This document shows positions 36,174 to 40,842 of a stretch of DNA of 64,000 nucleotides, one piece after another. This DNA comes from an uncultured Chloroflexia bacterium (GTDB lineage: Bacteria > Chloroflexota > Limnocylindria > Limnocylindrales > CSP1-4), in the NCBI GenBank assembly GCA_963725875.1, contig CAVRZZ010000003.1, positions 731,843-795,842 on the forward strand. Reading direction: 5' to 3'. A program made the position numbers and the translations under genes. The notes under the pieces were generated by a model, which saw only the letters and a program-made list of their open reading frames with translations, did no database searches and was not told the DNA's origin. Position 1 is the stretch's first letter. Every line of letters begins with the position of its first letter.

Positions 36174-36941
36174 TCAGCGGCGCGGACCTTCGCCCGGGTC
36201 CTGATCGGCGCCCCAGCCCGCATTCGAGAAGGTGGGGACGAACCGGTAGCCCTGGCCGGGGACCGTGGCGATGAAGCGCGGGTGGCGATAGTCGTTCTGG
36301 AGCTTGATGCGCAGGCTCCGGATGTGGCGATCCACGATGTTGCTTTCGGTCACGAAGTCGGTGCCCCAGATGGCATCCAGGATCTCCTCGCGCGTGACGA
36401 CGCGTCCGCCGCGACTGGCGAGGAGGTACAGCAGGCTCTGCTCGATGCCGGACAGGTGCACGACCGAGTCACCGGCACGCACCTGGCGACTCAGGATGTC
36501 GATCTCGATCTCGCCGAGCCGGATCGTGGGCACGATCGGGCGGTCGGTTCCCGTCGCGCGGCGGGTGAGGACGATGGACCGGGCGAGGAGCTCCTCGGGC
36601 GAGAAGGGCACGGTCAGGATGTCGTCGACGCCGAGCTCGAAAGCCCGCAGCTTCGTCTTGAGGTCGCCACGTCGGGTCAGGCCCAGGGCCGGTGTCACGC
36701 TCCGCGTCAGGGAGTTCGAGGCGCCGATCGTCTGGAGCAGGGCGGTGCTGTCGTCGTGGTCCATGTCGATCACCGCCAGGTGCGGGTGCCACTCGGACAG
36801 GATCTGCTCGGCCTCCGCCAGGCTGCCAGCGGCGCGAACGACGAAGGTGCCGTGTTTCAGCGTCAGCTCGATGAGATCCACGACGAGCGGGCGATCGTGG
36901 AGCACGAGCGTACGGCCTGCTTCGAGTGGTGGTGCGTCCAC
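36174..36941 (-). CDS. OmpR/PhoB-family response regulator (orphan: no adjacent histidine kinase)
   Basis: Receiver domain (…HLAVIDMDHDD…, …LTRRGDLKTKLRAFELGVDDILTVPFSPEEL). Winged-helix domain (…RLGEIEIDILSRQVRAGDSVVHLSGIEQSLLYLLASRGGRVVTREEILDAIWG…GQGYRF). Confidence 0.8.
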   Translation of the reverse strand: MDAPPLEAGRTLVLHDRPLVVDLIELTLKHGTFVVRAAGSLAEAEQILSEWHPHLAVIDMDHDDSTALLQTIGASNSLTRSVTPALGLTRRGDLKTKLRAFELGVDDILTVPFSPEELLARSIVLTRRATGTDRPIVPTIRLGEIEIDILSRQVRAGDSVVHLSGIEQSLLYLLASRGGRVVTREEILDAIWGTDFVTESNIVDRHIRSLRIKLQNDYRHPRFIATVPGQGYRFVPTFSNAGWGADQDPGEGPRR

Positions 36942-37044
36942 AGGCCCGTCGATGGCAGCTCCTCCTCGTTGCGCCCCCGAATGCCAGCACTATCTCATCC
37001 GCGACTACGCCGATCTCTCGTGCGTCTTGTGGAAGCGACTGGCC

Positions 37045-37125
37045 CCGGCTCCGCACCGGACCCACCGCTCCGTTCCGGGGGGCGGGATGGGATGCGCGCC
37101 GGGCGTCCGGGGGCCGTCCTCCTTG
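37045..37125 (+). repeat. copy 1 of a ~80-nt leader repeat (ggctccgcaccgg…ggg(a/g)cgc…ccgg(g/a)ggccgt)
   Basis: Shares its core with copies at 37553, 37893 and 38817. Lies ~55 nt upstream of the gene at 37181. Confidence 0.5.
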
Positions 37126-37180
37126 TGGCCAGGTTCGCTCGCGCCCATGATTGGTGGCCCCTGCAGGAGCGACGAGCACC

Positions 37181-37414
37181 ATGAGCGACGAGCGCACATC
37201 GGCCCCGGAGCCGGCGCCATCCACGGCGGAGAGGCGGTGGCGCCGCGCCAAGCGGACGGCAGTCGATGACTTGAGGAGCCGGGAGGATGAGATGACCGAC
37301 GCCGAGATCATCGAGGCCTTCCGCGAGATCGCGATCCTCCCTCCCGACGAAGGGGAGGAGGAGGACGAGGAAGAGATGAGCGACGAGGCGATCATCAACC
37401 TCGTCCGTGGGTAG
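37181..37414 (+). CDS. small acidic hypothetical protein
   Basis: MSDERTSAPEP…EDEMTDAEIIEAFREIAILPPDEGEEEDEEEMSDEAIINLVRG. Realistic and highly acidic. Confidence 0.4.
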   Translation: MSDERTSAPEPAPSTAERRWRRAKRTAVDDLRSREDEMTDAEIIEAFREIAILPPDEGEEEDEEEMSDEAIINLVRG

Positions 37415-37552
37415 TATCCCGGGGCGCTCCGCTCTCCTCGAAGGAGTGTGGAGCTCAAGGGCCGTGCCGAAGCGCCAGTCGGCGGCATCCCCGTCAACGC
37501 GAGCGCGACCATTGGCCTCTCGGCAAAGCACGCGATCTTCATGAACCTGGCT

Positions 37553-37630
37553 GGCTGCCGCACCGGGCGTTCCGATCTCTTCGGAGGACGGGACGCTCAC
37601 CGGGTGTCCGGAGGCCGTTCGCCTCTCGTG
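37553..37630 (+). repeat. copy 2 of the ~80-nt leader repeat
   Basis: gctgccgcaccgggcgttccgatctcttcggaggacgggacgctcaccgggtgtccggaggccgttcgcctctcg. Lies ~69 nt upstream of the gene at 37699. Confidence 0.5.
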
Positions 37631-37698
37631 AAGCGCGATGCCGGGAGGCGATCATCCGTCGCAATGTCTCCGCCGCTCCCTGGACAGTGAGGCCGACG

Positions 37699-37875
37699 AT
37701 GTTGAACCTTGGTCAGATAGGGCACGCCGTTCTCTATGCCGCCATCCCGATCGTCGTCTGCGCCGGCGCGATCTACGCTCAGCGCCGGCGCCGGCGCCCC
37801 TTCTCGAACGCGATGTGGGCGGTCATCGGCGGTGGCGCGGTCGCGCTGGCGCTGGTTGCCGGTGAGGTGTTCTAA
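37699..37875 (+). CDS. small membrane protein (~58 aa, two hydrophobic segments)
   Basis: MLNLGQIGHAVLYAAIPIVVCAGAIYAQRRRRRPFSNAMWAVIGGGAVALALVAGEVF. Confidence 0.35.
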   Translation: MLNLGQIGHAVLYAAIPIVVCAGAIYAQRRRRRPFSNAMWAVIGGGAVALALVAGEVF

Positions 37876-37892
37876 CTGACCTACGCTAGCCG

Positions 37893-37962
37893 CCGGCTCC
37901 GCACCGGGCCCTCCGCTCTCTTCGTGGGATGGGACGCGCACCGGGTGTCCGGGGGCCGTCCA
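37893..37962 (+). repeat. copy 3 of the ~80-nt leader repeat
   Basis: ccggctccgcaccgggccctccgctctcttcgtgggatgggacgcgcaccgggtgtccgggggccgtcc. Lies ~123 nt upstream of the gene at 38085. Confidence 0.5.
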
Positions 37963-38084
37963 GAACCCTGGGGCCGGCGGCGGCGCACCAGACTGCCCGC
38001 CGGAGCCGGCCGGCCCATTCGACGCAAACCGTCGGGACCATCGAGTGATGCCCACGCAGGCCTGGTGGGCCTACGGTCGAGCGC

Positions 38085-38777
38085 ATGTCGATGCGCACCA
38101 AGCTGACGGCGCCGCGGCGGGTCTTCCTCCGGCACACGCCGCCCGATCCGCCGTCGGTGCACGTCGTGAGGCTGACCCTGTACACCTGCGATGCGCTCGC
38201 ATTCGGCTACTTGGCGCTCTCGGCCGGACGGGTGACCGATCTCATGAACGAGCATGACGCCCTCGAGTTCGTCGATACGTACCTCCAGAACATCGCCGGT
38301 GGGCATGGCCTCGCGCTCCGCGCGGCCGTCATCGCGCGCGAGGAGATCTGCGCCGTGGGCGTCGCGGGTCCCCGGGGCGATCCGAAACGCCGGACCCGGA
38401 CGCTCCCGATCCCGGTCGAGCTGCGGCTCGGGCCTTACGACGTCTGGGGCAACATCCATGTGGTCCCGGGCACCGACCCGCTCGCCAGCTTTCGGAGTCA
38501 GCAGACCATGGTTCCGCTCACCGAAGCCGCGATCGGATGGGACGTGCCCGACGGCCGGAAGATCACCCGGTGGGACACCGTGCTCGTCAACCGGCTGCTG
38601 ACCGACTGGATCGCGCCCGCCTCGCGCGACGTCCGGCCTCCCGAGGTGCGGCTCGTTCCCGAGGCCGACGGCACCGGACTCGCCAAGGACGGCACCTCGC
38701 AGCTCGTCAGGCGTGGTGATCCCGACGGCGGTGAGCGTCGAGCGCTGGCAGGTCGTGGCCGGCACCGTGCCATCTGA
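38085..38777 (+). CDS. hypothetical protein
   Basis: …LYTCDALAFGYLALSAGRVTDLMNEHDALEFVDTYLQNIAGGHGL…PYDVWGNIHVVPGTDPLASFRSQQTMVPLTEAAIGWDVPDGRKITRWDTVLVNRLLTDWIAP… Realistic composition. Confidence 0.45.
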   Translation: MSMRTKLTAPRRVFLRHTPPDPPSVHVVRLTLYTCDALAFGYLALSAGRVTDLMNEHDALEFVDTYLQNIAGGHGLALRAAVIAREEICAVGVAGPRGDPKRRTRTLPIPVELRLGPYDVWGNIHVVPGTDPLASFRSQQTMVPLTEAAIGWDVPDGRKITRWDTVLVNRLLTDWIAPASRDVRPPEVRLVPEADGTGLAKDGTSQLVRRGDPDGGERRALAGRGRHRAI

Positions 38778-38816
38778 CCGGGCGCATCCGTCGTTGGCAT
38801 AGCCTTCACCGCGACC

Positions 38817-38892
38817 GATTCCGCACCAGGCGCTCCGCTCCTCGGAGGTGGGACGGGCAGCGGGAGCCGGGGGGCCGTTTGCCTCTCGCCAG
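38817..38892 (+). repeat. copy 4 of the ~80-nt leader repeat (most diverged)
   Basis: gattccgcaccaggcgctccgctcctcggaggtgggacgggcagcgggagccggggggccgtttgcctctcgcc. Lies ~130 nt upstream of the gene at 39022. Confidence 0.45.
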
Positions 38893-39021
38893 ATGCCCGG
38901 TCCCCGCCCACGGTGACCGCCAGCGGGAGGCTCAGGCGCGCGGCCCACACGCCGGCAGCCGGGACCGCGCCGAGCCACTGGGGAGACCGACCCACCTCGG
39001 CCCTTCTGGGGAGGCGCAGTC

Positions 39022-39577
39022 ATGGGTCACATCAGCAGGACGATCCACGTCGAGGCGACGCCGGAGCAGGTGTTCGATCTCTGCACGAACCCCGAGAGGT
39101 TCCAGGAGTGGATGGTGCCGGCGAGCGAAGTGAAGGACATCACGGGCACGCCCGGCACCGTCGGCCTCGGCTGGACCACCGGCTCGACGTTCGCCGGGCG
39201 CAAGATGGAGAACCACATGAGCGTCACCGCGGTCGAGCGGCCGCGGCCTTTCGAGGTGAAGGGCACCGGCGCCTTTGCCGCGACGTTGCGCGGGCGCTTC
39301 GAGCCGGCGGCGGGCGGCACGGAGGTCACCATCGAGAACGAACACGAGATGCCGCTCGGCTTCATCGGTGACGCCGCGAACACGCTCTTCGTCGAGAAGT
39401 CGTTCGCGGTGGGCCCGACCGCGCACGCAGGTCCGCGAGGTGACGCTCGCCGTGCTGGGCCGGATGCTGACCCGCGCCACCGCCTCGGGAACAGAGCCGC
39501 CGGCGGCGGCGAAGGCAGCGAGGACGTCGACCTGGCGGGCGGTTGGCGTCCGCGGCAATCAGGAGCAGCGCAGGTAG
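39022..39577 (+). CDS. SRPBCC-superfamily (Aha1/polyketide-cyclase-like) protein; 3' end possibly frameshifted
   Basis: MGHISRTIHVEATPEQVFDLCTNPERFQEWM… The C-terminus may continue in the frame of ORF 39275..39577 (…VREVTLAVLGRMLTRA…). The opposite strand (39558 down to ~39440) carries a 40-aa fragment of the small LuxR-like family. Confidence 0.55.
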
Positions 39578-39794
39578 CCGTCTCTCATCGAGGGCGGCTC
39601 ACGCTGGGCTCACCCGGCTGCGCGTGATGAGCGCCAAGACCACCGCCGTGACGGCGAGGATCGCGCCGATCTGGTCCGGCGCGAGGTTGAGCCCGAACGC
39701 ACGACCAGGGCGATCAACGCATGGGCGAGGGCGAGCACCATGACCGGTTCGCGACCCCAGATCGTGCCGGGCTGGGTGTCCATGGCTCCTCCGG

Positions 39795-40040
39795 TCACTT
39801 CACGCGGACGATGTCGCCCGGGTGGATGAGCCCCGGGTCGGCGCGGTACACGGCGTTCTCCGTGAAGGCCAGGAGGGTGACCGTGAGGCCGTGCGAGGAG
39901 GCGATCTCGCTGAGCGTCTCGCCTGACTTCACGGTGACCGTCACGATCGGCGGCCGCAGGATCGCGTTCGCCCGGGCGATCACGCGCTTGACCCGGGCCT
40001 CGCGGGTGGTCGGCGGCCACGGGTCGCTGCGCCGGCTCAC
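39795..40040 (-). CDS. LysM peptidoglycan-binding domain protein
   Basis: VKSGETLSEIASSHGLTVTLLAFTENAVYRADPGLIHPGDIVRV matches the LysM consensus. Confidence 0.65.
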   Translation of the reverse strand: MSRRSDPWPPTTREARVKRVIARANAILRPPIVTVTVKSGETLSEIASSHGLTVTLLAFTENAVYRADPGLIHPGDIVRVK

Positions 40041-40269: not shown

Positions 40270-40842
40270 ATGGACATGACGGCAGCGACCCGCGAAGCCG
40301 AGCCCGCAGCGGAGCAGATCCGCTCCTTGCCCGACGTCGAGTCAGCGCTCCGCGGTGATCTCCAGGCATTCGACCGCCTCGTTCTGGTCCACCTTCCCAG
40401 GACCTATCGGATCGCGCTGGCGATCCTCGGGTCGGAGGCCGACGCTGGCGATGCCGTCCAAGAGGCATGGCTCGCAGCCTGGCGGCAGCTTCCGACCCTA
40501 CGCGACCCCGCACGGTTTGACGGGTGGCTCGATCAGATCCTTGTGAACGCCTGTCGCATGAGCATTCGCAGGCGAAGCCGCGTGCGCGAGATCCGGATGC
40601 CAGACGGCTTCGATGCCGAGGCTCCGCAGGCAGCGCTCAACCAGGTCGCGGAGCGCGACGCGCTCGATCGCGCCTTTGGCCGGCTGACCGTCGAACAGCG
40701 GACCATTCTGGTGCTCCATCACCTCGAGCGGCGGCCGCTGTCGGCGATCGCGGCCGCGCTCGTGATCCCCGTTGGTACGGCGAAGTCCAGGTTGCACGCC
40801 GCTCGAGCGGCGCTGGAGCGCGTCTTGGAGACCGAGCGATGA
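40270..40842 (+). CDS. ECF sigma factor
   Basis: Region 2 ([19 protein letters not shown]…[20 protein letters not shown]) and region 4 ([40 protein letters not shown]). Confidence 0.85.

Follow-up and report, generated by a model that had tools for sequence, protein, structure and literature searches.

What kind of element recurs four times, always on the plus strand, among the small genes of an uncultured Chloroflexia bacterium? The DNA in question (64,000 nucleotides (nt) of contig CAVRZZ010000003.1, assembly GCA_963725875.1; hereafter, the window) is about 70 % guanine and cytosine (GC), and the element is a GC-rich repeat of about 75 nt whose copies lie 340-920 nt apart. The original prediction, made from these letters alone, described conserved leaders arranged like mycobacterial interspersed repetitive units (MIRUs), and named a repeated cis-regulatory RNA or operator as another possibility. 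Comparison with related genomes and metagenomes places the repeat in a large family that is a DNA-level element and probably not a leader RNA; we favour, tentatively, its interpretation as a sequence-constrained, protein-binding module situated upstream of promoters.

The presence of four conserved same-strand elements, as originally proposed, was confirmed in two ways. A 29-nt core pattern matched the window three times with no more than three mismatches and never in 100 shuffled sequences, and a hidden Markov model (HMM) built from 34 foreign copies, with no window sequence among them, recovered exactly the following four copies:

37041-37117, plus strand: repeat copy 1 (HMM E 7.6e-14), in the divergent gap between a regulator gene and a 77-amino-acid (aa) gene; left arm GGCCCCGG (37041-37048), box A TCCGCACCGGA (37050-37060), a long central palindrome, box B GCGCGCCGGGCG (37094-37105) and right arm TCCGGGGGCC(GT) (37106-37117)
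about 37547-37618, plus strand: repeat copy 2 (HMM E 1.5e-14), with a degenerate left arm; box A GCCGCACCGGGCG (37557-37569), hairpin TTCCGATCTCTTCGGAGG, box B GCTCACCGGGTG (37595-37606) and right arm TCCGGAGGCC(GT) (37607-37618)
37889-37959, plus strand: repeat copy 3 (HMM E 9.2e-18), the window copy nearest to the family consensus; left arm GCCGCCGG, box A TCCGCACCGGGCC (37898-37910), box B GCGCACCGGGTG (37936-37947) and right arm TCCGGGGGCC(GT) (37948-37959)
about 38810-38878, plus strand: repeat copy 4 (HMM E 1.7e-09), the most diverged and without a left arm; box A TCCGCACCAGGCG (38820-38832), hairpin CTCCGCTCCTCGGAG, box B GGGCAGCGGGAG (38855-38866) and right arm CCGGGGGGCC(GT) (38867-38878)

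A good left arm is missing from copies 2 and 4. Copy 3 begins 14 nt past the stop codon of a 58-aa gene, and the next start codon follows the repeat end by 63, 80, 125 and 143 nt in copies 1-4, respectively. The sole additional HMM match in the window was a weak one:

37419-37445, plus strand: relic fragment GGGCGCTCCGCTCTCCTCGAAGGA of the repeat family (HMM E 1.1), resembling box A and the central palindrome

This fragment lies directly after the stop codon of the 77-aa gene, approximately 100 nt before copy 2, and is probably a decayed fifth copy.

Hundreds of copies could be detected in uncultured Chloroflexota metagenome-assembled genomes (MAGs) and in sediment and soil metagenomes, so that the expectation of a repeat placed between consecutive co-oriented small genes, with further copies elsewhere, proved to describe a genuine family. 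When one genome per species was searched for the invariant 3'-half positions, 57 loci were obtained, and the element was present in about 34. The carriers are nearly all MAGs labelled uncultured Chloroflexia, Limnocylindrales (which lies within the phylum Chloroflexota) or Chloroflexota, and two of them share about 90 % identity with the window across the locus of its SRPBCC gene. The anatomy described below is based on 79 genome copies, 117 further metagenome copies and an alignment of 44 sequences; the fetched DNA, 926 kb in the recombinase scan, comprises loci numbered L005-L057 and L058-L177. What emerges is a large family, hitherto undescribed, of elements that do not code for protein and belong to Chloroflexota that are abundant in soil and sediment but uncultured. 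Two contigs of a MAG labelled Dermatophilaceae (L011 and L045) also carry the 3' half of the repeat together with an aptamer, joined by a different linker with an extended -10 element (TGAGAGAAT), and in L011 the unit of 3' half and aptamer is duplicated in tandem. Either these contigs are mis-binned Chloroflexota or the unit has spread outside the phylum.

The unit, of about 75 bp, is bounded by terminal inverted repeats of 9-11 bp (GGCCCCCGG/CCGGGGGCC; per-position conservation 76-97 %) and contains two direct 12-bp repeats, boxes A and B, which share a GCACCGGGCG core; the arms are thus inverted and the boxes direct. In the consensus, the left arm (AC)GGCCCCCGG-C is followed by box A TCCGCACCGGGCG, a centre of the form CTCCGC...GGAGGAT (16-42 nt, modal 25, mostly hairpin-capable), GGGAC, box B GCGCACCGGGCG and the right arm TCCGGGGGCC(GT). 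Conservation drops sharply beyond the arms and is highest in the 3' half (GGGAC through right arm), which is found alone in some copies, and these shortened copies still precede predicted promoters and aptamers. In the 44-sequence alignment, conservation reaches 90 % or more in 36 columns of the repeat, whereas the promoter spacer of the same units is near-random, indicating that the copies are not merely young. Moreover, changes within the repeat occur uncompensated, which points to a constraint on sequence and fits the recognition of double-stranded DNA by a protein.

A coding role for the repeat was ruled out. Its codon-position GC content is flat (0.79/0.79/0.83, compared with about 0.70/0.50/0.88 in real genes here), and its length variants are not multiples of three. 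The peptide reported earlier as common to the copies (GWDAHRxSGGR) is indeed shared, but for these two reasons it is a by-product, the mere translation of conserved DNA, and not a protein feature. Readings of the 3' half as an extracytoplasmic function (ECF)-type promoter (GGAT-N15-CGTC) or a sigma54 promoter were also rejected, as the spacing is off and the key T varies in 23 % of the 44 copies.

Promoter-like motifs are found at a fixed distance 3' of the repeat. In the main class, the -35 element is placed 7 nt past the repeat end, and [T/C]AnnnT occurs at +30 or +31 after that end in 36 of 71 genome copies; other offsets yield about 1 in 71. A fixed position relative to the -35 and -10 elements, as would be expected of an operator, is therefore found in the main class, and in the metagenome set in subfamilies only. 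Each of the four window copies conforms to this layout, copy 3 with a clear -10 only; the corresponding elements of the window, predicted from its sequence, are:

37123-37151, plus strand: predicted promoter after copy 1, with -35 TTGTGG (37123-37128), a 17-nt spacer and -10 CATGAT (37146-37151)
37165-37169, plus strand: AGGAG after the copy 1 promoter, followed by ATG at 37181
37626-37655, plus strand: predicted promoter after copy 2, with -35 TCGTGA (37626-37631), an 18-nt spacer and -10 GATCAT (37650-37655)
37989-37994, plus strand: predicted -10-like CAGACT after copy 3, at the canonical +30 and with no convincing -35
38886-38914, plus strand: predicted promoter after copy 4, with -35 TCGCCA (38886-38891), a 17-nt spacer and -10 CACGGT (38909-38914); predicted start about 38920

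Among 27 copies linked to an aptamer, the arrangement reads TCGCCTC, TCGCCA, 11 near-random positions and (T/C)ACGGT, with a spacing of 17 nt; the TCGCCA hexamer is conserved at T81/C81/G85/C85/C88/A77 %, and the -10 element at 85 % for both A in position 2 and T in position 6. Variants approach the textbook hexamers (TTGACA-17-CATCTT in L005, as well as TTGCTA, TTGCGA, TCGACG and TGGTCA), and a second linker class, TCGTGT-17-GAGCGT, again has an aptamer on its 3' side. The tRNA and signal recognition particle (SRP) RNA genes of the same genomes (L025, L028, L021, L023 and L057) carry (TG)CTAnnnT that stops 5-7 nt short of the mature 5' end, such as TATTCT, TAGAAT, TAGACT and TATGAT, with no clear -35; this TAnnnT is a local calibration of what a putative -10 element looks like in these organisms. 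Some aptamer-free copies appear to be leaderless, for example CATCGT-N7-ATG in L053. Given the position of the -35 and -10 elements 3' of the repeat, the repeat itself would occupy about -43 to -120 from the predicted start.

Two further observations concern the DNA between the repeat and the gene. At 37620-37650, TCGCCTCTCG and CCGGGAGGCGA after copy 2 form a potential 10-bp hairpin that overlaps the predicted promoter, and its second arm is similar to the c-di-GMP-II-GAG aptamer at the latter's 5' end, as though a deletion in an aptamer-bearing unit had given rise to copy 2. In the metagenome contigs of L060 and L104, a near-perfect AT-containing palindrome (GTTGTTACGAATCGTAATGACAAC) lies approximately 15 nt past the repeat and looks like an operator for another regulator.

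The aptamer is a second, frequent companion of the repeat. A single Rfam family, absent from the original prediction, was found in the 64-kb window, and it is located just downstream of the copy 4 promoter:

38917-39000, plus strand: c-di-GMP-II-GAG riboswitch-candidate aptamer (RF03169; 44.7 bits against a gathering score of 40, E 1.7e-05, model positions 1-86)
about 39009-39015, plus strand: Shine-Dalgarno sequence GGGGAGG, after the aptamer and before the SRPBCC start at 39022

Orthologous aptamer sites score 63-72 bits, and 41 further matches to this family were found in 38 related loci (about 235 kb), a very dense occurrence. A repeat ends 22-55 nt upstream of 35 of the 42 aptamers, and 35-37 nt upstream in 24; the proportion 35/42 is an upper estimate because the loci had been fetched with the repeat as query. 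Three of the seven remaining aptamers show degenerate repeat remnants by eye. Since the aptamer model starts 2-3 nt after the -10 element, the predicted transcript start would lie a few nt inside the P1 stem, and the outer P1 pairs of the window aptamer are non-canonical, as expected for such a start. The likeness of this locus to RF03169 is limited to the neighbour at 38917-39000 that passes the gathering score: the Rfam model starts at P1 and excludes the repeat, which lies upstream of the aptamer's predicted promoter. These results mean that most of the fetched orphan c-di-GMP-II-GAG candidates (35/42) share a fixed promoter architecture and a conserved upstream site, and that the genes behind them (for SRPBCC proteins, methyltransferases and small envelope proteins) offer a set from which the riboswitch ligand may be guessed.

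Could the repeat itself be a structured RNA, acting as a 5' leader domain whose promoter would lie immediately before the left arm, or as a hairpin in 3' untranslated or intercistronic regions that stabilizes or processes polycistronic mRNA? About 78 % co-orientation with the flanking genes and a centre that is always hairpin-capable would suit such a role. Rare long central insertions are near-perfect palindromes themselves and lengthen the hairpin with perfect stems (for example L040, with 8 bp, and also L079 and L086), and 7 of 46 copies, copies 3 and 4 among them, have -10-like TAGNCT or TACGCT 22-23 nt ahead of box A. Covariation, however, was absent in every helix tested. For the arm-arm, box A/box B and small central stems, 78.7 % of cells were paired, compared with 78.3 % with shuffled partners, and for the GGACGC/GCGTCC hairpin the values were 85.5 % and 85.8 %; the recurrent GGAC...GTCC stem of the original prediction shows no covariation. 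In 116 metagenome copies whose arms lay outside the search pattern, complementarity was not higher in the native arm pairs than after permutation (z -0.96). The small hairpins listed originally are present in the copies, but their compensatory upkeep amounts to a weak signal at the central hairpin (permutation p about 0.0035, 42 sequences) that was gone in 95 independent metagenome variants (z -0.65). Folding energies are ordinary relative to shuffled sequence (z-scores of +1.0, -1.3, +0.4 and +0.2 for the four window copies), and the Rfam covariance models that had been suggested as a check gave no match to the repeat itself, even at E up to 10. The linker GCCTCTCGCC is complementary to the aptamer's GGCGGGAGGC at 10 bases in the consensus, but variants in the linker or in the aptamer 5' strand disrupt this pairing without compensation, and it was rejected. 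In addition, the predicted promoter sits between repeat and aptamer, and some copies are antisense to all neighbouring genes. With the -35 and -10 elements predicted 3' of the repeat, and with neither covariation nor an Rfam match, the claim of a transcribed leader is not supported, and a structured RNA of any of these kinds is very unlikely.

It is the other option of the original prediction, a repeated cis-regulatory element or operator, that is favoured by the position-specific promoter motifs and the sequence constraint. The unit would then supply, at about -43 to -120, the upstream portion of sigma70-type promoters that make up one family. Box B with the right arm (GCGCACCGGGCGTCCGGGGGCCGT), the promoter-proximal and best conserved portion that is kept in truncated copies, may serve as the docking site for a DNA-binding protein, which would act as an activator or repressor from about -50 to -65, and box A with the left arm may offer a second, optional site. 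The unit-bearing genes could thereby form one co-regulated set of small secreted or membrane proteins, SRPBCC proteins and methyltransferases, and about a third of the units would add a second layer of control through the orphan c-di-GMP-II-GAG candidate at the predicted transcript start. A GGGACGCGCACCGGGCGTCCGGGGGCCGT-type stretch of 30-45 bp could be used as bait for the partner protein.

Several observations weigh against this promoter-module interpretation. A generic promoter and terminator scan of the window found nothing, because the hexamers are too GC-rich for a scan rule that requires AT-richer ones. In the metagenome set, just 16 to 20 of 117 copies have a -10-like motif at the canonical offset and the downstream flanks are heterogeneous; the fixed promoter is thus a trait of large subfamilies and not of all copies. 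The spacing between the boxes varies from 16 to 42 nt, which argues against cooperative binding on one helix face. No binding protein was picked out, and the position of the neighbouring regulator is not conserved. With respect to orientation, a codon-bias gene caller found 123 of 152 upstream neighbours and 92 of 122 downstream neighbours to share the strand of the repeat, with 12 convergent and 10 divergent placements. Copies in divergent gaps (copy 1 and others), which can serve the downstream gene only, speak for the module; the convergent ones fit the interpretation poorly, as does L061, where two copies, one of them truncated at its -10, are antisense to all three neighbouring genes, so that the unit is unable to serve a co-oriented gene there. 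Finally, 124 of 125 neighbouring copies lie on one strand even though about 20 % of the flanking genes are reversed, a pattern that the promoter module does not predict.

A recurrent context was also noticed in L055 (6326-6408), L041 (7775-7855), L012 (4749-4827) and L063, where the stop of a convergent membrane-protein gene (...LLLPFVS*) lies within about 25 nt of the repeat and no co-oriented gene follows downstream.

The strand-locked arrays of neighbouring copies are a separate, testable oddity whose polarity the model of a promoter module leaves unexplained. Non-overlapping loci on one contig agree in strand (4/4, 4/4, 2/2 and 2/2 on contigs of 100-475 kb; those compared include CAVPWX010000020.1 and CAVPWX010000006.1), and the single 1.56-Mb contig, CAVUGM010000006.1, has mixed strands. 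The spacing of neighbouring copies is 350-2000 bp (median 855), and the median distance from a copy to the upstream stop codon is 32 nt. Replication-strand polarity, judged by GC skew, was rejected, as skew showed no association with the repeat strand (39 positive versus 45 negative). Evidence for rearrangement comes from the closest relatives: homology between the window and two of them begins inside copy 4, at box A in one (38820, L032) and at the central hairpin in the other (38841, L021), and the upstream neighbour of the SRPBCC unit differs in each of three related genomes, which indicates that rearrangement occurs at the repeats.

Such observations raise the question of whether the family may be a repetitive extragenic palindromic (REP)-like repeat, a REP doublet forming a hairpin (REPIN) or a MITE (miniature inverted-repeat transposable element), selfish or domesticated, that spreads or recombines between genes and has no dedicated regulatory role or is a generic terminator or insulator hairpin. 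The link with promoters would then reflect the co-duplication of repeat, promoter and aptamer. Sharp ends, unrelated flanks, a central palindrome, hundreds of copies that are intergenic only and the closeness of the upstream stop codon all agree with it, as do the terminal inverted repeats expected of a MITE (GGCCCCCGG/CCGGGGGCC), the convergent, antisense and truncated units (L061), the loss of synteny at the repeat when close relatives are compared and a potential hairpin of -40 to -55 kcal/mol; strand-uniform arrays would fit a strand-specific, single-strand transposition. On the other hand, no target-site duplication was found (the best 2-mer matched in 18 of 131 cases, compared with 10.6 expected, and longer words gave nothing), and the 115 proteins neighbouring the repeats are ordinary chromosomal genes with no transposase among them. 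Transposases and recombinases are not enriched in the 926 kb, no U-tract follows the hairpin, the boxes are direct and not inverted as in REPINs, and arm mismatches are uncompensated. Old units with a randomised promoter spacer keep a core conserved at more than 90 %, which speaks for host-level selection and not recent copying, and the spacing to the aptamer, fixed at 35-37 nt, is met again in many gene contexts. A REP- or MITE-like origin without dedicated regulation is, on balance, rather unlikely.

The strand uniformity also invites comparison with gene cassettes, in which the unit would be the boundary of a small mobile cassette, resembling attC in its logic and served by some other recombinase. 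The 124 of 125 neighbours on one strand with about a fifth of the intervening genes reversed, the spacing of 350-2000 bp, the inverted arms around a variable-length central palindrome, the cassette-like cargo (SRPBCC, methyltransferases, lipocalin-like, GYD and small secreted or membrane proteins) and the presence of the same SRPBCC unit behind differing upstream neighbours in three related genomes would all be in keeping with it. Integron attC arrays are likewise same-strand, lie between small and mostly co-oriented open reading frames (ORFs), and have inverted arms and a variable central stem. In contrast to attC sites, the repeat lacks the R''(RYYYAAC) and R'(GTTRRRY) core sites: GTT occurs in about 50-60 % of copies, with no RRRY and no AAC partner, and conservation is lowest at the outermost bases. 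When successive window copies are compared by eye, the right flank of the first is not complementary to the left flank of the second, no integrase motif is present in the window, and tyrosine-recombinase motifs gave 2 matches in 926 kb and none in the window. Furthermore, there are many separate arrays per genome, and the units bring their own predicted promoters. The integron attC reading itself was therefore rejected, and a cassette site for another recombinase appears highly improbable. We give little more credence to a broader possibility, suggested by the same polarity, that the repeat marks the boundary of a new cassette or genome-organising system, in which promoter-riboswitch-gene units are shuffled by a recombinase or single-strand transposase, or that it is a mark of chromosome polarity.

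Among known repeats, the nearest precedents for a promoter-upstream module appear to be the promoter-bearing intergenic repeats of Neisseria: REP2, which lies upstream of a co-regulated gene set, and Correia elements, which have outward-directed promoters. To our knowledge, strand uniformity of arrays has not been described for either of these elements. They are dispersed intergenic repeats of approximately 100-150 bp, located 5' of many unrelated genes, that bring or abut a promoter (PMC3184786). In Neisseria, the transcribed part is the downstream sequence and not the repeat, as predicted for the window repeat. The latter, however, has no sequence relation to REP2 or Correia, places its predicted -35 and -10 just outside the inverted-repeat unit, shows no TA target duplication, and differs in host phylum and in its coupling to a riboswitch candidate. 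REP/REPIN-RAYT systems are likewise abundant, extragenic, GC-rich, palindromic and conserved in sequence; a REPIN consists of two inverted REPs, in contrast to the two direct boxes within short inverted arms seen here, and no RAYT was seen among the 115 neighbouring proteins of the fetched DNA.

The comparison with MIRUs, on which the original prediction had rested, does not hold. MIRUs occur as tandem arrays, whereas the copies of the window repeat are dispersed and single, one per intergenic gap. Several features described for MIRUs, which are GC-rich, 40-100 bp long, intergenic, mostly oriented with the genes and equipped with imperfect inverted repeats both at their ends and internally (PMC3184786), are common to both with regard to GC richness, size, location, orientation and inverted repeats. 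MIRUs also contain ORFs that overlap the ends of adjacent genes and are flanked by tetranucleotide direct repeats (PMC3184786); the window repeat is non-coding, has no ORF that overlaps the flanking genes (63-143 nt to the start codon) and no flanking direct repeats. The repeat is not a MIRU, an Rfam RNA, an attC site, a classical MITE or a REPIN.

The genes around the four window copies are as follows:

36174-36941, minus strand: OmpR-type response regulator (Response_reg and Trans_reg_C), divergent from copy 1 and a candidate binder by position only
37181-37414, plus strand: gene for a 77-aa acidic protein with no Pfam family, after copy 1
37699-37875, plus strand: gene for a 58-aa membrane protein, after copy 2 (ATG at 37699)
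38085-38777, plus strand: gene for a 230-aa protein with no Pfam family, after copy 3
39022-39627, plus strand: SRPBCC (Polyketide_cyc2/AHSA1) gene, after copy 4 and the aptamer

The divergent OmpR-type regulator and the SRPBCC gene after copy 4 agree with the gene context given in the original prediction. An exact search for the 230-aa protein in the assembly index gave no record. As a conserved partner of the repeat, the regulator was rejected, since a homologue occurs in the fetched DNA at one other locus only (L025) and not beside the repeat. Across the family, the genes downstream of the repeat (n=114) are diverse; SRPBCC proteins (9) and S-adenosylmethionine-dependent methyltransferases (5) are the commonest, and the others include GYD, alpha/beta hydrolases, lipocalin-like proteins and numerous small proteins, secreted or in the membrane, to which no family was assigned.

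Some further observations concern the 3' end of the array. The SRPBCC ORF encodes 201 aa in the window and 151 aa in its orthologues, and both nucleotide and protein similarity stop near 39409 (residue 129); the sequence of the low-complexity C-terminus suggests a frameshift or a lost stop codon. An ECF-type sigma factor gene (40270-40842, plus strand) and a gene for an 81-aa LysM-domain protein (39795-40040, minus strand), neither with a demonstrated link to the repeat, lie 0.8-1.3 kb downstream of the array, and the latter is conserved beside the SRPBCC unit in L032.

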